Source of the DNA: a virus
Lineage: Duplodnaviria; Caudoviricetes
Virus record (IMG/VR): IMGVR_UViG_3300042922_000108
Location: 1-56,135 of that record
DNA length: 56,135 bases
Strand: one strand, 5' to 3'
Made by a program: the position numbers and the translations under genes
The notes under the pieces: generated by a model
What the model was told of the DNA's origin: nothing
The model's input: the letters and a program-made list of their open reading frames with translations, nothing else
The model's database searches: none
Part shown: positions 3,275 through 52,122 of the stretch, one piece after another
Layout of the letters: every line of letters begins with the position of its first letter
How positions within the stretch are numbered: the stretch's first letter is position 1

Positions 3275-3669
3275 TGAATAAGAAGTTTGCAGCCATTGTT
3301 GCAGCAGGAGCACTCGTACTTTGTTTGACCGCTTGCGGTTCCAGCGCCAAGACTGTTGGTGAGAACGTCTCGAAAGAGGCAGATGAGTTCAAGGTGCAAC
3401 GCAAGATTGTCGGTATCAACGGCATCACCAACACCATTGCCTTTGAGGTAGAGGGCAAGTGCTCCATTGCAGATCAAGGGCACCAGCTTGAGGTCATCTG
3501 CAGGCATGGTCCTGATGAATACCGTAAGCACATGATCGGTCTGAGTGACAACACGCTCTACGTGGCAGAGCAGTTGGACCCCATTGACGTGAGCCGGTAC
3601 CACACCACAATCAAGATCAGGCCGGAAGCCCTCATTCCCGGTTTCCAAGTTGAGGCTGGTCAGCAGTAG
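3274..3669 (+). CDS. Lipoprotein
   Basis: Signal peptide MNKKFAAIVAAGALVLCLTAC with lipobox. Confidence 0.8.
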   Translation: MNKKFAAIVAAGALVLCLTACGSSAKTVGENVSKEADEFKVQRKIVGINGITNTIAFEVEGKCSIADQGHQLEVICRHGPDEYRKHMIGLSDNTLYVAEQLDPIDVSRYHTTIKIRPEALIPGFQVEAGQQ

Positions 3670-3677
3670 CAAAAGCC

Positions 3678-3745
3678 AAGAGCCCTGCAGGTGTATTACA
3701 ACCCTGCAGGGCTCTTTTGCATTTCTTTCAGATATGCCCTAGACT
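3678..3745 (+). terminator. Intrinsic terminator followed by sigmaA-type promoter
   Basis: AAGAGCCCTGCAGG/CCTGCAGGGCTCTT stem plus T-run; TTGCAT-17-TAGACT. Confidence 0.75.
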
Positions 3746-4112: not shown

Positions 4113-5522
4113 TTGGAGCAGCCGTATACACCTCACACAGACCAGAGAACTGCAATTGACTTCATCCTCAAGCACAAGGCCGTCCTTATCAAAGGTGGTG
4201 TGGGCTCAGGTAAGACGTTGGTAGGGGTACAAGCAGCTCTGGAAGCCGGTGTGGAAACCTTGCTGGTGATCGGACCCCTCAATACGTGGAAGGGATGGAG
4301 AACCACCACGGAGAGGCAGTCAGAGGGTGCACGAGAGCTTCGCTGGATCAACTCACGCAAGGCAGGGCAGGAAGCCTTACAGGACCTCATGACAGGAGTA
4401 CCCGGCTGGTACTTTATCGGACGTGAGCTGTTCCGCAACTACTCGTGGCGCAAGGTCACGCTGGACATGGTTATCTGGGATGAGATTCACGGAATCTCCA
4501 ACCGCAAGTCCAAGTCCTTCAAGATCACCAAGACTGCCAAGGCTACGTACAAGCTGGGGCTGTCTGCCACACCGGCAGGTAACCACCTCTCAGGCATGTG
4601 GTCAGTCAGTACATGGCTGTGGCCTACCAAGACTCTCAGAAGCTACTGGTCGTGGATTACCCAGTACTTCATGACTGAGCCTGACCCTTACTCTGACTTC
4701 AACCCCAAGGTGACGATAGAGCGAGAACCCGGCAAGATGTGGGCAGAGCTACCTGCTGCCTACAAGATGAAGTCTGTCTATACAGCAGAACCGGTCATCC
4801 ACGAGATTGAAGTTGATATATCACCTGTCCAGCGGAAGCATTACCGCGAGCTGGAAGAGGAAGCCTTGACGTGGCTCAAGGGGCACCCGCTGGCGATTGA
4901 CGTACCCGCCGTCCTTCACACACGACTTAGGCAAGTGTGCTTAGCTGTACCCTCAGTCAAGCAGGACTGGATCAAGCGTAAGGACAAGGAAACGGGACTA
5001 TGGGAAGACGTTTGGGGCGACGTTGTTTGGTTTGACGAAGATGCCAAGTCAACCAAGATCGACGCCCTGCTTGAAATCCTTGGTGACCTGTACGTTGAGA
5101 AGCCTGTCCCTGTTCTCGTGTTCACAGACTCTCGCAAGTTCGCAACCATCACTACCAAACGTTTGCAGGCCAAGGGTTACCGCGCTCGCCAGTTCATCGG
5201 TGGTATGTCGGACGCAGAACGATTCTGGAAGCTGGACAACTTTGGTAAAGAGTACGATGTGCTAGTTGCTGTTATTTCAGCCATCGGTACCGGCACTGAT
5301 GGATTGCAGGACGTATGCAATACAGAAGTGTGGATGAACTTTGGTTGGAATGGTATTGAAAATGAGCAGGGATTTGGTAGGCTGTCACGGCAGGGACAAA
5401 CCAAGACGGTACAGCGGTTTATCATCCAAGCACGTGACACGGTGGAGACTCGCCAACGTGAGAAGCTAAGGTCAGACCAAGAGCTTTTGAGTATCGGTTA
5501 CAGAGATAAGGAAACAGTCTAG
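4113..5522 (+). CDS. SF2 (SNF2-like) DNA helicase
   Basis: GSGKT Walker A, DEIH, SATP, Q-x-x-GRLSRQGQ motif VI. Confidence 0.9.
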   Translation: MEQPYTPHTDQRTAIDFILKHKAVLIKGGVGSGKTLVGVQAALEAGVETLLVIGPLNTWKGWRTTTERQSEGARELRWINSRKAGQEALQDLMTGVPGWYFIGRELFRNYSWRKVTLDMVIWDEIHGISNRKSKSFKITKTAKATYKLGLSATPAGNHLSGMWSVSTWLWPTKTLRSYWSWITQYFMTEPDPYSDFNPKVTIEREPGKMWAELPAAYKMKSVYTAEPVIHEIEVDISPVQRKHYRELEEEALTWLKGHPLAIDVPAVLHTRLRQVCLAVPSVKQDWIKRKDKETGLWEDVWGDVVWFDEDAKSTKIDALLEILGDLYVEKPVPVLVFTDSRKFATITTKRLQAKGYRARQFIGGMSDAERFWKLDNFGKEYDVLVAVISAIGTGTDGLQDVCNTEVWMNFGWNGIENEQGFGRLSRQGQTKTVQRFIIQARDTVETRQREKLRSDQELLSIGYRDKETV

Positions 5523-7990: not shown

Positions 7991-9274
7991 ATGGCAACTG
8001 CAACCACCACCCGCAAGGCATCCACCACCGCTGGTAAGACCGCTGGCAAGACTACTCCATCCACCAAGCTCAGCGGACAGACACCGGCTCACGTGGCCGC
8101 TGTGAAGCCAGCACCGGCACCGCAGAACCCCGAAGTCAAAGAGTCCAAGATGGAGATTGAAAGCACCGTAGTTCCGGGCAAGGTTGCTTTCGCGGTGATG
8201 ACTCCAGACCGGCTCAAAGCTCTGGCATTCATCAGCACATACAGCTCCACGGATGAGCAGTCCACCAGCCCTCGCGGACACGGTTACCAGAGGGAGCCGA
8301 TGGAAGAGCGCTTCCCCGGTATCGGTCGCTACTACGCTCGCGGTGACAACCGCTTCCGTATCCCCACGCTGACTATCAGCGTCAGGGTCTACGACGCAAA
8401 GGGCAGGGCTCGCTTCAACACCCTGTTCAATCAGGGGAACATCAGCAAGATTCATCAGGAGTTCGGGCGTTCCGTCTTCTCCATCGTGGATGGACAGCAC
8501 CGCTCCGGTGGCCTATTCTGGGCTTGGAAGAGCATCGAAGACTTCAACGCCTACGTTCCCATGATGCTGAACTACGGCCTGACGTACCGGGAAGAGGCAC
8601 AACTGTTCGATGACATGAACACCACGCAGCGCAAGCTCCCGAAGGCTCTCATTGAGGCCACGAAGGTGCACACGGAAGCTGACAACGCTTCCCACGCCCA
8701 AACCATTCGAGCGGTGACGTTCGAGCTGGCAGAAGACGGTGATTCGGTCTGGAACGGCAAGGTCAACATGACCGGCAAGCCTCGAGCTGCTGAACCTGTC
8801 AGCTTTGAAGGCCTGCGCCGGTCAGTCGGTGACCTGCTTCCCGCCAAGGTCATTGGCAGGCTCGAGGATCGCGGCTACATTCCCAGCAACGTCGCCAAGC
8901 GCTTCTGGGGCATGGTAGCCAAGGCATGTGCTCCAGCGTGGACAGACCAGCCCCGGTGGGTAGAGAATGAAAACCGGGAGCAGGTGGAAGAGCCTGTCAA
9001 GTACCGGCTGAAGGACGTGGTTGGTGTCGCCGCCGTCTCGCTGCTGGGAGCCGATATCCTCCTGACAGCGCTGGACAAGAGCACCAAGGATGAAGATTTC
9101 TGGGACATTGTTTCCGAGTACGTCAGCAAGCTTGGAGCTATCGACTGGGAGAAGCGGAAAAACAATCCGTGGATGAGTACTTCAGCCGGATTCGGTGGAC
9201 AGCGCCAGTTGTACGACATGCTATATTCACTGGTGTACACGGACACTCAGCCGGGAGTACCGGCAGAGTCCTAA
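7991..9274 (+). CDS. DGQHR-domain (DndB/ParB-Srx fold) protein
   Basis: YQR and IVDGQHR motifs, EEAQLFDDMNTTQRKL; own promoter (TTGACC-18-TAGATT) and terminator. Confidence 0.85.
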   Translation: MATATTTRKASTTAGKTAGKTTPSTKLSGQTPAHVAAVKPAPAPQNPEVKESKMEIESTVVPGKVAFAVMTPDRLKALAFISTYSSTDEQSTSPRGHGYQREPMEERFPGIGRYYARGDNRFRIPTLTISVRVYDAKGRARFNTLFNQGNISKIHQEFGRSVFSIVDGQHRSGGLFWAWKSIEDFNAYVPMMLNYGLTYREEAQLFDDMNTTQRKLPKALIEATKVHTEADNASHAQTIRAVTFELAEDGDSVWNGKVNMTGKPRAAEPVSFEGLRRSVGDLLPAKVIGRLEDRGYIPSNVAKRFWGMVAKACAPAWTDQPRWVENENREQVEEPVKYRLKDVVGVAAVSLLGADILLTALDKSTKDEDFWDIVSEYVSKLGAIDWEKRKNNPWMSTSAGFGGQRQLYDMLYSLVYTDTQPGVPAES

Positions 9275-9280
9275 CAGACT

Positions 9281-9324
9281 GGGAACCCCTCACATCATCT
9301 GGGAATGTGAGGGGTTTCCTTTTT
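9281..9324 (+). terminator. Intrinsic terminator
   Basis: GGAACCCCTCACAT/ATGTGAGGGGTTTCC plus T-run. Confidence 0.75.
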
Positions 9325-9366
9325 CCCCTCGAATGTACTATGCTGTGGATAACGAAAGGAAAGATC

Positions 9367-9579
9367 ATGGGAACCACCGTTAGCGTTCCAGAACTCCCGA
9401 AGTGCGATTTCTGCTCACGAGCAGGGCTTGACGCAGAGGCACACTACGATGGCAAGACGGTCTTTGGACCGTGGGCCAACATGTGCTCAGTGCACTTCAG
9501 CACATACGGCTCCGGCCTTGGTACAGGGCTAGGACAACGACTCATCTTGAAGGAAGACAATGGAACTGAAAAGCGGTGA
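9367..9579 (+). CDS. Small Zn-binding phage protein
   Basis: CDFC...YDGKT..GPWANMCxxH...GLGTGLGQ; GAAAGGA RBS. Confidence 0.75.
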   Translation: MGTTVSVPELPKCDFCSRAGLDAEAHYDGKTVFGPWANMCSVHFSTYGSGLGTGLGQRLILKEDNGTEKR

Positions 9580-15942: not shown

Positions 15943-16476
15943 GTGACTGAGCGTCCTTCATTTGACCTGACCGCCGAAGACCTTGACACCACCCGCAAGT
16001 TGGTGCCGGAAGGCTGGCACACGGTTGAAATTGATGACTGCGAAGACGATCTGGAGACTTCCAACGGGAACCTTCAGTACCTCGTGAAGTACAAGTCCGT
16101 GGATGAGAGCTTCAAGGGACAGCTTTGGGACTACATTGCAGTCACGAAGTCTTCCATTCAGAACATCATCAGCCTGACCAAGGCTGCAGGCCTGCCGGTT
16201 CCCACCAAGGAAAAGCCGGGTCCGTTTACCCCTCCTGAAGCTGATGACCTGATCGGCAAGGAACTCCAGATTGAAGTTGTCCACGTGGATGACTACAAGA
16301 AGGCAACTGACGATGAGGGCAATATCCTCAAGCGTGCACAGGTCCGTTTCGCCGGTCGTAAGAAGATCGGTGAGAAGGTAGGCAAGACTGCTGCCAAGGC
16401 AACCACCAAGGCTGGCGCTAAGGCTCCGGCTAAGGGCAAGGCCGCTGCTGCTGAGACTGACGGTTTCTCGCTGTAG
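15943..16476 (+). CDS. Single-stranded DNA-binding protein (DUF669-like)
   Basis: PEGWH.V.I, LIGKE..I.V, Lys/Ala-rich tail ending ETDGFSL; synteny. Confidence 0.7.
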   Translation: MTERPSFDLTAEDLDTTRKLVPEGWHTVEIDDCEDDLETSNGNLQYLVKYKSVDESFKGQLWDYIAVTKSSIQNIISLTKAAGLPVPTKEKPGPFTPPEADDLIGKELQIEVVHVDDYKKATDDEGNILKRAQVRFAGRKKIGEKVGKTAAKATTKAGAKAPAKGKAAAAETDGFSL

Positions 16477-37428: not shown

Positions 37429-37464
37429 TTGACTCTCCCTTTATTGTGTGCTATGTCTGCGACT

Positions 37465-37515
37465 AGCCTATCATAGGCACGAAAAAGCCCCTCGAGCACA
37501 TAGCTCGAGGGGCTT
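37465..37515 (-). terminator. Terminator followed by extended -10 promoter TGaTAGGCT
   Basis: AAGCCCCTCGAGC stem plus T-run; promoter at 37473-37465. Confidence 0.7.
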
Positions 37516-39949: not shown

Positions 39950-40389
39950 TACCCCTGCTTCATGTTGTTCTGAGCTGTAAGCACACGCTCCCAAGCATTG
40001 CTGCTGGACTCATCACCGTGTACGTAGTAGGTGGCTCCCACCTTCTCAGGATCGGCACCGTTGAGAAGAACCGTGATCCTGTCATTGACCTCTACGTTGA
40101 AGTCAGCCCCGGAAGGAAGCTCATTCTCGCTGAAGCCAATGGCAATCCTCATGCGCTGGAACTTGGCTGCGTCTTCAACAAAGTCACGGTTGGTGGGGAA
40201 AGCAACCTTCTGGATGCGAGCCCTGCCAAGATAAATCTGTTCAGTGGTGCCGCCGTCGATCTGTCCGGTTTCCACGTTGTACTCACCGCGTGTCAGTACC
40301 CTCTCAATCAGCACACGAGCTATGTGTGTGCTGTTGACTGTCTGCCTGTGGTGAAAGGCAAACGCTGGATGCAGAGCCCCGCCCCTCAT
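39949..40389 (-). CDS. Head-to-tail stopper (DUF6093-like)
   Basis: IYLGRARIQ motif; synteny. Confidence 0.7.
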   Translation of the reverse strand: MRGGALHPAFAFHHRQTVNSTHIARVLIERVLTRGEYNVETGQIDGGTTEQIYLGRARIQKVAFPTNRDFVEDAAKFQRMRIAIGFSENELPSGADFNVEVNDRITVLLNGADPEKVGATYYVHGDESSSNAWERVLTAQNNMKQG

Positions 40390-41042
40390 CGGATAGGCCA
40401 ATTATTGAGGTATTCATAAGCTTTCAATACTATGTCCTTATCGTCACGTAGCATCCCAATTCCTGAGTTGCATTGTCTACAGAGGATGCCCCTTACACAC
40501 GCACCGCATGAGCCTACTCCTGCACAACATGACCTATCGTGGTCAATGGCATATAAAGCGGTGTCCAGAGACACTTCACAGATTCGACACTTGTTTTCCT
40601 GAGCATCTAATAGCGCCAAGAATGTTTTACGTGTGAATCCATATTTGCGAACTGATGAACATATCGCACAAAAGATTGCTAGGTTATCTGCACTACCCCG
40701 ACTCGAATGGTAATCACTTTCGGGTAACCAGTTCTCACACTCCACACAATGCTTCCGACCTAATGAATCCCGCTCACGGATAGCAGCAGTCTTCCGGTAA
40801 ATCTTGCGCGGTGCTGTTACTTCTTTCCCGTTGTGTGTTCTGCGGTAGTGCATCTCGCACTTCTGTTTCTTGACACTAGGGATATTGCAACCAGCTATTA
40901 CGCATAAGTAGTATCCACGAGTCTGGGGGAAGTGAACAGCTATCGGGTCACCTGTCTTGCGTAGGTGCTCATAATGCGCTTTACAGTAACCCAAGGCCTT
41001 GTGCTTAGTGTTGACACAGAAGTAGACTTTACAATTGAACAT
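40386..41042 (-). CDS. Endonuclease VII-family homing endonuclease
   Basis: QENKCRIC...IDHD..CC....C..CVRGILCRQCN.GIG; N-terminal C..C...C..HY repeats; lower GC. Confidence 0.9.
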   Translation of the reverse strand: MFNCKVYFCVNTKHKALGYCKAHYEHLRKTGDPIAVHFPQTRGYYLCVIAGCNIPSVKKQKCEMHYRRTHNGKEVTAPRKIYRKTAAIRERDSLGRKHCVECENWLPESDYHSSRGSADNLAIFCAICSSVRKYGFTRKTFLALLDAQENKCRICEVSLDTALYAIDHDRSCCAGVGSCGACVRGILCRQCNSGIGMLRDDKDIVLKAYEYLNNWPIR

Positions 41043-41051
41043 TACCTCAGC

Positions 41052-41453
41052 TTACCGCAATGGGTAGGGTGCAGGGTAATGCGTGTATGACACAATCTCA
41101 AAGGCTTCCAGCGCTGCATCCTCAACGTCTTCTTCCTTCTGGCGAGTGCGGAACTCACTAGCGATCTGACGCAGAGAGTTGGCAATCACTGAGCCGTCTG
41201 TGCTCAGGTCTTCGGTGCGGATTTTCTTTGAGACAAGCGCTTCATTGGCAGCGATAGCCAAGAGCGCGTCTGCTGCAGCACCGTACAGCTTGTCGCTGTT
41301 CAGCGCGAGGAAAGACTTGAGCTGGCCGTCATCCATCAAGTAATCCGCTGAAGCATCAGGGTTGGCAGGGTCTTTGTACTGCTCAGTCTGAGACAGCAGC
41401 GCGCGGAGCTGGCCCAGCGGAGTCGCATAATCGGGAGGGAAGATATTTGCCAT
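41052..41453 (-). CDS. Head-to-tail adaptor
   Basis: DYATPLGQLRAL...AAADAL..IA; leaderless promoter. Confidence 0.75.
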   Translation of the reverse strand: MANIFPPDYATPLGQLRALLSQTEQYKDPANPDASADYLMDDGQLKSFLALNSDKLYGAAADALLAIAANEALVSKKIRTEDLSTDGSVIANSLRQIASEFRTRQKEEDVEDAALEAFEIVSYTHYPAPYPLR

Positions 41454-41492
41454 ACATCAAGTGTAACAGTTTGTCAACCCTTGATTTTGAAC

Positions 41493-41591
41493 AAAGAAAA
41501 AGCCCCAGCCTGTGGAGAGTCAGGCTGGGGCTTCAAGTGCAGGAGCAAAAGCAGTGGAAAGGAAAGTAAACACTGCGCTCTAGAAACTGCT
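41493..41591 (-). ncRNA. Candidate sRNA A with CU-rich loops
   Basis: TGaTAGGCT at 41606-41598, interrupted hairpin with loop UUUACUUUCCUUUC, 13-bp terminator with loop ACUCUCCA; no ORF. Confidence 0.55.
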
Positions 41592-41595
41592 AGGT

Positions 41596-41796
41596 CTAGC
41601 CTATCATACTCTTCGAGCGCCTCAAGCGTCTACGCTTCTCTTCGATGTAAGCTCCACCACATGCAAAGAGAGCTACCCCGAGAAAGAGGTGCCCAAGCGC
41701 ATAGATAAGCTGTTGATGTAGCAGCGCACCGGCACCTAGTAGTGACACAGCTACCACGCTGAGAATGATTGAGTTGACTATCCAAGGGAATTTCAT
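41596..41796 (-). CDS. Small two-TM membrane protein
   Basis: Hydrophobic segments plus basic tail; own TATCAT -10 after capsid terminator. Confidence 0.65.
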   Translation of the reverse strand: MKFPWIVNSIILSVVAVSLLGAGALLHQQLIYALGHLFLGVALFACGGAYIEEKRRRLRRSKSMIG

Positions 41797-41813
41797 ACCG
41801 CTCATGATACAGC

Positions 41814-41840
41814 AAAAGCCCTGTACCGAAGTACAGGGCT
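41814..41840 (-). terminator. Major capsid terminator
   Basis: AGCCCTGTAC-TTCG-GTACAGGGCT-TTT. Confidence 0.8.
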
Positions 41841-41852
41841 CTTACTTTATGA

Positions 41853-43016
41853 CTAGCTGATTGGAGTCAGGTAATCGGGAGCAGCAGCGTTGGACTCGCC
41901 GGTGGATGCGTACATGGACGCTCCGAACCAGAAGCCACCAGCCACAACGTGGCGAACGCGGTACTCAATGTCATCGTTGAGCAGCGAGCCTTCCAGAGAA
42001 GGAACCTGACCGCCACCGAGATACAGGCCGGTGTTACCGGACTGACGGAACTCGGGAGCTTCGTGGTTACGCAGGAAGTTCACAACGATGGAGTCACGGA
42101 CACCATCATTGCCGCCAAGCGGAACGAGGAACCAAGTGGTAGCAGCGTTGGCGCTCTTGTTGATCTGAGTCAGGTAGTCGTTGACAACCAGAGTCACATC
42201 AGAGTTAGCAGCCGTGGTCTGGTACTCGAGGTTACCGTCAGTGACCTTGAGCTGGTTGAGCGCAAGGATGCGCTCTGCCGTGGTCTGCAGGTTGGTCGGA
42301 ACAACTAGAGCGAACCGCTGGACGGTCACGTAGTTGCCGTTGACCTGACGTGCCCGAACCTCGCGCTTGGCGAACTCCAGAGCGTTCAGGGACAGCTTGT
42401 AACGGGTACCGGAAACACCAGTGGTGCCCATTGCGTTGCCGTTGCCAGCGTTGAAGGTATCAGCGTTCACACCAGCAGCGTCAACCAGAACCTCAAGAGC
42501 GGAAGTCTCTTCCGTGGTCTTGGCGAGCTTAGCCATTTCGCCGGGGAGGGAGCCAATGAAGCCCCACTCATCGTTGATAACGTCTTCCCACGAGAACGGG
42601 ATGCGAGCACCCTTCTTACGGAGGGAAAGGCTCTTGCCCGAAGTGCTCCACCGGAAGGTGGGGTATTCCGTCAGTTCAGGAATGTTCGGCAGCGAGTGGA
42701 CAGCCGTACCGTAGCCACCGTTGTCGTCAAGGTCAACCTGACCGTTGAACAGGAATTCCTTCTTGCGCTTGGGCTTGAAGTCTTCAAACACGTCACGCTT
42801 GGCGAACTGGGTCCACGTGGTGGGCAGTCCAGCGTACTGCTTCAGCAGCTCAGCGGAGTTGGCGGCGGCGAAGGTGCGAGCAAGGTCCGAGGTGGAGATA
42901 GCTTCGTTGAGGACAAAGCCCTCAGAAACAATCTGCTTGATGCGGCCACGCGCGCGGAAGTCACCCTTGAGGGCATCACCAAAGATATTGGCGGCTTCGA
43001 TCAGTGCATTAGTCAT
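41853..43016 (-). CDS. Major capsid protein
   Basis: 387 aa; DFK, ELTEYP, W..INDE, LVVP, D.IEYRVRH motifs. Confidence 0.9.
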   Translation of the reverse strand: MTNALIEAANIFGDALKGDFRARGRIKQIVSEGFVLNEAISTSDLARTFAAANSAELLKQYAGLPTTWTQFAKRDVFEDFKPKRKKEFLFNGQVDLDDNGGYGTAVHSLPNIPELTEYPTFRWSTSGKSLSLRKKGARIPFSWEDVINDEWGFIGSLPGEMAKLAKTTEETSALEVLVDAAGVNADTFNAGNGNAMGTTGVSGTRYKLSLNALEFAKREVRARQVNGNYVTVQRFALVVPTNLQTTAERILALNQLKVTDGNLEYQTTAANSDVTLVVNDYLTQINKSANAATTWFLVPLGGNDGVRDSIVVNFLRNHEAPEFRQSGNTGLYLGGGQVPSLEGSLLNDDIEYRVRHVVAGGFWFGASMYASTGESNAAAPDYLTPIS

Positions 43017-51837: not shown

Positions 51838-51882
51838 TTGCTTCCTTCGTGGGAATGTGCTAAGACAAACCTATCATGACGC

Positions 51883-52049: not shown

Positions 52050-52122
<73 letters not shown>

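Follow-up and report, generated by a model that had tools for sequence, protein, structure and literature searches.

A candidate small RNA gene with a conserved pyrimidine-rich loop in the head module of an Amigovirus-related phage genome

What is encoded by the stretch of about 99 nucleotides (nt), free of open reading frames (ORFs), that lies behind the major capsid gene in the virus record IMGVR_UViG_3300042922_000108? The whole of this IMG/VR record, 56,135 bp in length with a completeness estimate of 94%, was analysed and is termed the window. An initial annotation had proposed at this place a phage small RNA (sRNA) which displays two loops resembling the anti-Shine-Dalgarno (anti-SD) end of 16S rRNA and silences mRNAs led by a Shine-Dalgarno (SD) sequence, while leaderless phage genes escape. 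The computational follow-up reported here indicates that a separately selected, structured RNA gene is very probably present; that its product acts by pairing open pyrimidine loop(s) with ribosome-binding sites (RBSs), chiefly those of phage mRNAs, is in our estimate an evenly balanced proposition at best. Several comparisons of the analysis were judged by eye and the gene calls were home-made.

On the minus strand the order runs from the capsid stop codon (41853) through the capsid terminator T1, an ORF of 69 amino acids (aa), the word TGATAGGCT, 99 nt without a frame and the word TGTTACACT to the ATG of the next head gene. The extended -10 word, its identical copy at 37473..37465, the near-identical TGATAGGTT at 51876..51868, the ORF-free segment of about 99 nt and the hairpin followed by a terminator were all recovered on the minus strand as the initial annotation had read them, and the unit is composed as follows.

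41598..41606, minus strand: extended -10 promoter-like word TGATAGGCT, overlapping the end of the small ORF (last codons and stop); its letters TG.TA...T are conserved in 7 of 7 sequences
41493..41591, minus strand: candidate sRNA of about 99 nt, with a predicted start at 41591 and its end in the U run (covariance model, fold and covariation)
41539..41590, minus strand: hairpin 1, with stems P1 (GCAG/CUGC), P2 (GAGC/GCUC) and P3 (GCAGUG/CACUGC); minimum free energy (MFE) and centroid structures agree
41557..41570, minus strand: loop 1, UUUACUUUCCUUUC, 14 nt (alignment; unpaired probability 0.98)
41499..41534, minus strand: terminator hairpin T2, 14 bp, with the 8-nt loop 2, ACUCUCCA, at 41520..41513 (terminator scan)
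41493..41498, minus strand: U run behind T2 (from the sequence)

The unit folds with an MFE of -43.3 kcal/mol against a mean of -23.8 kcal/mol for shuffled sequences (z = -6.8), none of 200 shuffles folding as well, and the MFE structure makes up 57% of the ensemble. In the predicted ensemble both loops stay open (mean unpaired probability 0.98 in loop 1, 1.00 in loop 2). Nine of the 14 bp in the T2 stem are GC and the U run follows next, as expected of a rho-independent terminator. The terminator forms only the 3' 42 nt of the conserved element; the promoter word and the 52-nt hairpin 1 are kept too, and a plain intrinsic terminator as the whole element is ruled out by the conserved promoter word and by hairpin 1 with its invariant loop. 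A hidden small ORF was likewise rejected, there being no ATG inside the unit and no conserved frame (indels in the relatives break every frame across the loop), and antisense to the unit only short, low-scoring ORFs were found.

Relatives were retrieved by a capsid-protein search, which gave six viral and eight metagenome loci, and the main covariance model was built from seven distinct sequences (the window, L002 = L007, L003, L004, L025, L005 and L028). All relatives that have 82-89% capsid identity and extend over the region carry the unit, L006 ending inside it. In L002/L007, L003, L004 and L025 it follows directly after T1 with no ORF between, and in L005 and L028 an antisense ORF of about 100 aa stands in place of the membrane ORF of the window. 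The hairpin is therefore not merely the 3' untranslated region (UTR) of the membrane gene, the outcome that the initial annotation had named as fatal to its proposal, because it is kept in relatives without that gene, five of the seven having no membrane ORF upstream. Because transcription of the membrane ORF would continue across the unit as far as T2, the unit may occur in the window phage in two forms, within a 3' UTR and as a short RNA.

The covariance model scores its own members at 76-109 bits, and its match in the window (41495..41591; 76 bits, E 4e-17) is the only strong one, the next reaching 16.9 bits (E = 0.03). In the alignment fitted to this model, with seven sequences only, 96% of cells are paired and changes on both sides occur in 12 of 25 pairs, including all five modelled P3 pairs and 6 of the 12 T2 pairs, whose cells are 100% paired. 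Not one of 500 shuffles attained the observed paired share, the number of both-side-changed pairs or cells, or the covariation score; further pair types were matched by 10 of the 500. When partners were slid by 1-3 columns, pairing fell to 36-51%. An independent MAFFT/RNAalifold run returned the same helices with 11 of 25 pairs compensated, and one further A-U to G-C swap in P3, at positions 41574 and 41553, is seen in the soil contig of run X5 (about 93% alike), where loop 41557-41570 is unchanged. Chance clearly does not account for the fold, for its conservation or for its covariation.

Outside this group of relatives the sequence searches returned little. The exact hairpin core of the window had no match in viral contigs. 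A search with the terminator-loop 16-mer found four known relatives together with L009, a chance match in a GC-rich coding region, and a gapped hairpin pattern retrieved 15 stretches, which by eye comprise five known relatives and 10 chance matches. In a cultured-phage collection 15 records match the capsid part of the query and none the RNA part. Genome contigs of 185,579 species gave no match to the combined loop pattern and no capsid relative, and neither a prophage copy nor a host genome was found there. With Rfam 15 (4227 models) run over the whole window, only a tRNA reaches its gathering score (a single tRNA gene at 52050-52122, minus strand, 71 bits with the Rfam tRNA model); under permissive filters over 41400-41900 the best match was NsiR1, whose 25.3 bits fall short of its gathering score of 39, and every match there was driven by the terminator.

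Across the seven sequences the promoter word reads TGaTAGGCT, TGgTATAGT, TGaTAGTAT, TGgTAGAGT (twice) and TGcTAAAGT (twice), so that variation is confined to the n positions and all seven share the letters TG.TA...T; in each of them the word ends 6-7 nt before the first P1 base. In the soil contig of run X5 the word is intact and the DNA just upstream (41610-41625) carries six letter changes and two insertions. Counted with up to one mismatch, TGATAGGCT is not over-represented in the window (13 matches, 9.7 expected); for the general form TGnTAnnnT, 14 of 35 sense-strand words fall within the non-coding 9% of bases (binomial P = 9e-7), as compared with 2 of 21 antisense words in non-coding DNA. 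Words of the TGATAGGCT type also stand before the ten genes listed in the initial annotation as leaderless, TAnnnT ending 6-7 nt before the ATG in all ten. Promoters in Actinobacteria usually consist of an extended -10 and lack a -35. Since the word before the unit has this form, is conserved and is correctly spaced, with 41591 lying 7 nt past it, we infer that an RNA of about 99 nt starts near 41591, and the sequence bears out the proposal of a discrete non-coding unit with a conserved promoter-like -10 and a terminator of its own. As a separate observation, the leaders behind the two TGATAGG(C/T)T promoters at 37473-37428 and 51876-51837 (both minus strand) share TAGCACA about 10-15 nt downstream, and TAGCACA is retained in the chaperone leaders of G002 and G003; the observation also covers L084 and L085.

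Of what use could such an RNA be? In loop 1 the word UUCCUUUC does not vary among the seven sequences, although five pairs next to it covary, and at an unpaired probability of 0.98 it has the properties of a conserved single-stranded seed; the window reads CUUUCCUUUC where the other sequences have CUUCCUUUC. The loop 2 word CUGACUCUCCACAG is identical in 5 of 7. Taking the 16S anti-SD as CCUCCU, as given in the accessible part of PMC12274833, CUUCCU of loop 1 is one C-to-U transition away from it, and consequently loop 1 can pair with all partners of the 16S tail (with one G-U) plus AGGAAG. The complement of loop 1, AAAGGAAG, is built from the commonest ribosome-binding hexamers of the genomes of the window clade. 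The earlier description of two anti-SD loops thus applies to the window RNA and not to the family as a whole: loop 1 is conserved and complementary to SD-type words, and loop 2 differs in two of the seven sequences.

C/U-rich loops recur in other RNAs of the same genomic slot. A wider survey with the 133-aa protein encoded downstream gave 49 viral loci, sorted partly by eye, and in 29 of them its homologues flank a slot with a window-type or an analogous RNA. Five of these loci are the known relatives. Two more (L040 and L041, 60-63% identity) retain P1/P2 and the terminator and carry C/U words in the terminator loop (UCUUCCUUC and ACCUCUCUCC, respectively); in L041 a small hydrophobic ORF overlaps the promoter word with its 3' end, as in the window. 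Four loci, namely Amigo, Molivia and two uncultured kin, hold a unit of 150-175 nt behind TGCTAAGCT, with UUCCUCC in the terminator loop and a stem that differs between Amigo and the other three. Sixteen loci (13 distinct sequences) are termed type B and combine a -10 word and a 5' part containing CUCCUCC or CUCCUG with a long terminator hairpin. Compensatory changes affect 12 of 16 pairs of this hairpin, while its apical loop UUGCUCC does not vary; two further loci (L045 and L079) hold a longer version of type B. The remaining 20 distant loci (L060-L070, L073-L078 and L080-L082) gave no comparable element by eye or by model.

The window-type model matches the analogous units only at their terminators, and because it finds nothing beyond these they are called analogous and not homologous; Rfam searches on 12 related loci returned no match. 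UUGCUCC is present in the window-type RNA as well, as the 3' strand of P2/P1. The T1 loops, by contrast, are short and ordinary (UUCG, GAAA, CACAA). The feature common to the slot RNAs is the recurrence of invariant C/U loops of 7-14 nt. In the Amigovirus RNAs (L032 3365-3540 in Amigo, L034 519-667 in Molivia, L044 and L083) it was also observed that the first hairpin is hypervariable, different in each of the four, and that the 3' end of about 80 nt, closing with the UUCCUCC terminator loop, is nearly constant.

Hexamers in the 20 nt upstream of start codons were counted, with home-made gene calls, in eight complete genomes, the window clade (GC 52-56%) and type B (GC 58-66%) contributing four each. 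The commonest hexamers are AAAGGA (34), AAGGAA (33) and AGGAAG (23) among 355 starts of the window clade, and AGGAGC (47) and GGAGCA (46) among 349 starts of type B; in each group they complement the invariant loop of its own RNA, UUCCUUUC/CUUCCU in the former and UGCUCC in the latter. In G000, G002 and G001, 23% of start regions contain a complement of at least 6 nt to CUUCCUUUC, as opposed to 8-14% in the other five genomes; for a complement to GUUGCUCCC the share is 13-20% of type B start regions and 1-9% elsewhere. Individually, AAGGAA is found in 28 of 262 translation initiation regions as opposed to 19 of 442 elsewhere (p=0.0016), GGAGCA in 46 of 349 versus 8 of 355 (p=2e-8) and GGAGAG in 15 of 258 versus 11 of 446 (p=0.036), and in type B genomes CA follows GGAG in 44 of 142 sites. 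AGGAAG and GGAGCA depart from the perfect complement of CCUCCU exactly where the RNA loops differ from CCUCCU. Such a clade-wise match of loop and RBS word is what pairing predicts, though it is to be read with the heavy caveats given below.

On these grounds we propose, as the reading that fits best, an independent sRNA gene of about 99 nt running from promoter to terminator between the capsid terminator and the leaderless head gene. Its RNA would act in trans, the open pyrimidine loop pairing with purine-rich RBSs of the AAAGGAAG type and keeping 30S subunits off; most relatives would also reach sites of the GGAGAG type, through the terminator loop CUCUCC. As its clients we consider the phage's own mRNAs most likely, among them those of the replication arm (for example gene 9367 and the SSB gene at 15943), with the tail assembly chaperone mRNA as a possible client of loop 2; host mRNAs may be clients too. 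Phage rather than host mRNAs are pointed at because the loop fits the phage's own RBS word better than the canonical one. Leaderless genes would be spared, as would the capsid and major tail genes with their UAAGGAC sites.

Candidate sites were examined in 79 start regions of the window taken from the home-made gene calls, with shuffled loops of the same composition as controls. The complements cited in the initial annotation before gene 9367, before the DGQHR/DndB gene at 7991, before gene 6860 and before the tail chaperone gene were all found; the two best are listed here.

9354..9363, plus strand: GAAAGGAAAG, best loop 1 complement, in the RBS of the 70-aa gene starting at 9367, 3 nt before the ATG; candidate target
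37430..37438, minus strand: GGAGAGTCA, best loop 2 complement, in the RBS of the tail assembly chaperone gene (start 37428); candidate target

The duplex at 9367 is predicted at -14.0 kcal/mol with loop 1 versus -9.8 kcal/mol with a 16S-tail probe, and that at the chaperone gene at -16.8 kcal/mol with loop 2 versus -9.3 kcal/mol. The chaperone site ranks top of 75 start regions for loop 2 (z = -2.7) and is retained in G002 and G003, which share loop 2; in G001, with a different loop 2, it is replaced by AAAGGAAAUGUCA, which fits loop 1 over 7 nt. GGAAGAGGTAAACA, a bulged match to loop 1, precedes 7991, and TGGAGAG precedes gene 6860. The capsid and major tail start regions pair poorly (-3.3 to -4.8 kcal/mol), and the neighbouring gene 41453 lies outside the top five translation initiation regions for either loop. 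Loop 2 forms runs of at least 7 nt in four regions as compared with 0.5 for shuffled loops, a marginal excess (P=0.01).

Some observations attach to these genes in their own right. Gene 9367, which is promoter-proximal, encodes a Cys-rich protein of 70 aa (PHROG 23287) and has a small unit of its own (9275-9366, plus strand) with a terminator hairpin, a promoter-like TACTAT word and a short leader, likewise seen in G002 (L033). The product of 7991-9274 (plus strand) is a DndB-family, DNA sulfur modification-associated protein (Pfam PF14072, E 2e-11). The capsid (43016, minus strand) and major tail (38027, minus strand) genes share a near-identical start region, consisting of GCGTAAGGACT, 8-9 nt and the ATG.

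A number of points weigh against regulation by loop pairing and have to be set beside these findings. Loop 1 runs of at least 7 nt occur in seven translation initiation regions versus 3.5 for shuffled loops (P=0.11), its longest run has P=0.10, and its P values range over 0.10-0.24 overall; sites of the AAAGGAAA type pair weakly, at about -8 kcal/mol. The targets named in the initial annotation could accordingly not be separated statistically from matches of any C/U-rich loop. The G002 homologue of 9367 keeps GAAAGGAAAG though its own loop pairs over just 8 nt, with no compensatory change, and loop-target covariation at this gene was rejected. In G006 the chaperone site fits its loop over just 5 nt, and the site, kept in three genomes, replaced in G001 and unfitting in G006, was rejected as a firm target. 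Both sites are leads only. Loop 2 is not conserved in L005 and L028 (CUGAAUACGGGCAG; AAUACGGG), and L040 and L041 are without P3 and its loop.

The association of loop and RBS word rests in effect on two or three clades, and is confounded by GC content (52-56% versus 58-66%), and orthologous genes have inherited their sites in common; the gene calls are crude and the choice of starts used an anti-SD probe, although the same procedure still gave different words per group. A bias of sites towards the replication arm in G000 (12/35 vs 4/40, p=0.013) and G010 (p=0.03) was not seen in four other genomes, and targeting specific to that arm was rejected as inconsistent across genomes. Among the listed sequencing runs containing the stretch none is on record as RNA, and the four runs compared with it are DNA contigs, for which reason the start, end and abundance of the sRNA are predictions.

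Other explanations of the same unit were weighed against this background. It could be a purely cis-acting 3' module, a second terminator with a stabilising hairpin that insulates capsid or membrane-ORF transcripts and has no role in trans. Its position directly behind the capsid gene, the strong terminator at its end and, in the window, its place at the 3' end of any membrane-ORF transcript agree with this; the capsid gene, however, already has T1 in every relative, and insulation would require neither that a TGnTAnnnT word be conserved 7 nt ahead of the first stem nor that an 8-nt loop stay invariant while the stems next to it covary. Moreover, the T1 loops are plain tetraloops while those of T2 and type B span 7-10 nt and are invariant, and we hold the cis module to be unlikely. 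To about the same small degree we credit a protein-binding or decoy RNA, whose loops would mimic the 3' tail of 16S rRNA for S1, for a phage RNA-binding regulator or for an endoribonuclease toxin attacking the anti-SD. The loop is one transition from CCUCCU, and C/U-rich loops recur in slot RNAs that cannot be aligned, which fits motif recognition as well as it fits pairing; furthermore, Actinobacteria have toxins whose cut in the 16S tail falls at or beside the anti-SD, as described in the available portions of PMC12274833 (MazF-mt11) and PMC12620021 (RelE1). Yet CACCU, the MazF-mt11 site, is absent from the window RNA, nothing in the analysis links the RNA to any protein, and the loop words vary by clade in step with the RBS words, as pairing predicts and a fixed host protein or a 16S mimic does not.

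An attenuator, in which a factor binding hairpin 1 controls read-through into the downstream head and tail genes, would suit the order of promoter, structured leader, terminator and same-strand genes. It appears less probable than either of the foregoing: with the exception of locus L047, a separate -10 placed for a leaderless start precedes the downstream gene in all clades, on a read-through transcript that gene would have no SD site, the folds contain no alternative anti-terminator pairing (the MFE structure holding more than half of the ensemble), and T2 with its 14-bp stem is very stable. The unit as a leader of the next gene was rejected, gene 41453 having its own leaderless promoter. 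Least credible of all, and in our opinion implausible, is the global titration of SD sites put forward in the initial annotation, by which host and early phage translation would be shut off and about ten leaderless genes escape. The loops are indeed anti-SD-like, ten genes carry the leaderless signature and the RNA's neighbour is leaderless in nearly all clades; but most phage genes are SD-led, including those for portal, protease, tail and replication, the leaderless flag was raised in only 7 of 75 called genes (crude calls), and one short RNA would have to outnumber all cellular RBSs. Such a shut-off is unlikely because most phage genes are SD-led and because the loop fits the phage's own RBS word better than the canonical one.

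A more speculative extension of the pairing proposal, to which we likewise assign a low probability, is that the RNA reads a phage RBS "dialect", the word used in many RBSs of a clade (AAAGGAAG in one, GGAGCA in another) fitting the phage's own sRNA better than the host 16S tail, or, as a variant, that it is a mimic of the 16S tail which diverts anti-SD toxins. A late, capsid-linked RNA would in that case switch off or re-tune a whole class of messages while leaderless and differently worded structural genes continue, and the loop and the genome-wide site word would co-evolve.

The window has a GC content of about 53%, with a replication arm on the plus strand (helicase 4113, SSB 15943, primase 16883, DNA polymerase 19780) and a structural arm on the minus strand (protease 44673, decoration protein 43476, capsid 43016..41853, major tail protein 38027, tail chaperone 37428). 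Its nearest named phages are Arthrobacter phages of the genus Amigovirus, with 67% nucleotide identity between capsid genes and 46-51% identity between the 133-aa neighbour protein and its Amigovirus counterparts. The features next to the unit are given below.

41853..43016, minus strand: major capsid protein gene, upstream neighbour (PHROG 133/4523 head proteins, E 1e-45)
41817..41840, minus strand: terminator T1 of the capsid gene, a 10-bp stem with a UUCG loop, then UUUUG (sequence reading and hairpin scan)
41596..41805, minus strand: small hydrophobic two-helix ORF, 69 aa from ATG 41805 (ORF list)
41460..41468, minus strand: extended -10 word TGTTACACT of the 133-aa head gene, ending 6 nt before ATG 41453
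41052..41453, minus strand: 133-aa head-module gene, downstream neighbour, leaderless (PHROG 18316, E 1e-42)

A GC-rich hairpin with a T run is found at the T1 position in every relative. The small hydrophobic ORF has no family match in PHROG or Pfam and is, judged against the relatives, an insertion special to the window phage; it probably starts at the leaderless ATG 41796 (66 aa), TATCAT ending 7 nt before that codon. In run X5 its stop codon is altered (41596) and its last codons show many substitutions and two insertions. The gap between T1 and the promoter (41596-41816, minus strand, in the window) was observed to be an insertion hot spot across relatives: it is empty in four of them, holds the antisense ORF of about 100 aa in L005 (~4190-4560) and L028 (~3330-3700), and in L041 (819-1058) contains a hydrophobic ORF of 79 aa unrelated to the 69-aa ORF of the window, blastp between the two membrane ORFs giving no match at E <=10.

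The 133-aa head gene is read as leaderless because TGTTACACT ends 6 nt upstream of its ATG, and the same TGTTACACT-type layout is found in relatives. A TTGACA at 41472-41477 (minus strand) is conserved in relatives as GGTTATTTGACA; as a -35 of gene 41453 it was rejected, standing only 6 nt from the -10 word. Between the 133-aa gene and the next head gene lies an endonuclease VII/HNH-type ORF of 218 aa (40386-41042, minus strand; PHROG 2633, E 6e-23), which was dropped from the home-made gene set by its codon score and looks like a homing-endonuclease insertion because both head genes abut or overlap in L002-L004.

Phage-encoded sRNAs and anti-SD-type sRNAs are each already known kinds. The RsaE/RoxS-type and streptococcal csRNA-type sRNAs of Firmicutes occlude SD sites by C-rich or anti-SD-like loops, their second hairpin being the terminator; unlike the phage RNA they are host-encoded and belong to another phylum, and it has no sequence or model match to them. 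The sRNAs c4 of P1/P7 and sar of P22 are phage-borne, and their exposed loops mask phage mRNA at or near the RBS. Each regulates a single neighbouring operon and has a link to immunity functions. The window RNA, in contrast, lies in the head module, its neighbour is leaderless and not among the top five sites, and its candidate sites are dispersed, so that a target in an adjacent co-transcribed or overlapping gene, the mark of the c4/sar type, is not found. Another known arrangement is the 3'-UTR-type sRNA with an internal promoter, of the DapZ or MicL type. Like these, the window promoter sits inside the last codons of the upstream ORF and the terminator is shared with that ORF; unlike them, the RNA has no upstream ORF in five of seven relatives, and the overlap of promoter and ORF is on that account a by-product of insertion and does not mark where the RNA came from.

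For a working model within the likely host phylum, the 6C sRNA of Actinobacteria comes closest; according to the accessible part of PMC6486639 it binds mRNAs by C-rich loops without a chaperone. As far as that source extends, 6C (6C/B11 of M. tuberculosis) resembles the phage RNA in being a short hairpin RNA of the likely host phylum with open pyrimidine-rich loops; it pairs with purine-rich stretches of several mRNAs and does so without Hfq or ProQ, as is proposed for the phage RNA. It differs in being chromosomal and in using C-run loops for G-rich sites, whereas loop 1 of the phage RNA is mixed U/C with at most two Cs in a row and UUUACUUUCCUUUC and ACUCUCCA are U-dominated with no C run; like every Rfam model, that of 6C stays below its gathering score in the window RNA and in 12 related loci. 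Among phages, c4 of P1/P7 is named in the available part of a 2025 review (PMC12197685), in which the words "mycobacteriophage" and "Actinobacteri" do not occur. Highly expressed intergenic non-coding RNAs, one of them in the middle of the WC1 genome, are described without an assigned function for Rhodococcus phage WC1 and mycobacteriophages D29 and Kampy in the accessible sections of PMC10986025; those sections give no structure, loop motif or RBS link, and the likeness is by description only. The literature search found no capsid-linked actinobacteriophage sRNA and no phage sRNA with anti-SD loops, a counterpart in print being possible. By the Rfam searches the RNA belongs to no described family, and on our best reading it would represent a new family of phage base-pairing sRNAs that occlude RBSs, probably those of the phage's own mRNAs.

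Overall, the sRNAs of phages infecting Actinobacteria are almost unexplored, and the present locus adds to them an RNA gene, well supported by its structure, that is fixed in the head module of a whole soil-phage group. The proposal can be put to the bench at once because counterparts exist in the cultured Arthrobacter phages Amigo and Molivia. If true, it would amount to a chaperone-free, phage-borne translational regulator, which may provide a timing mechanism for phage gene expression at the level of translation and would offer a natural handle on the balance between leaderless and SD-led messages during infection.

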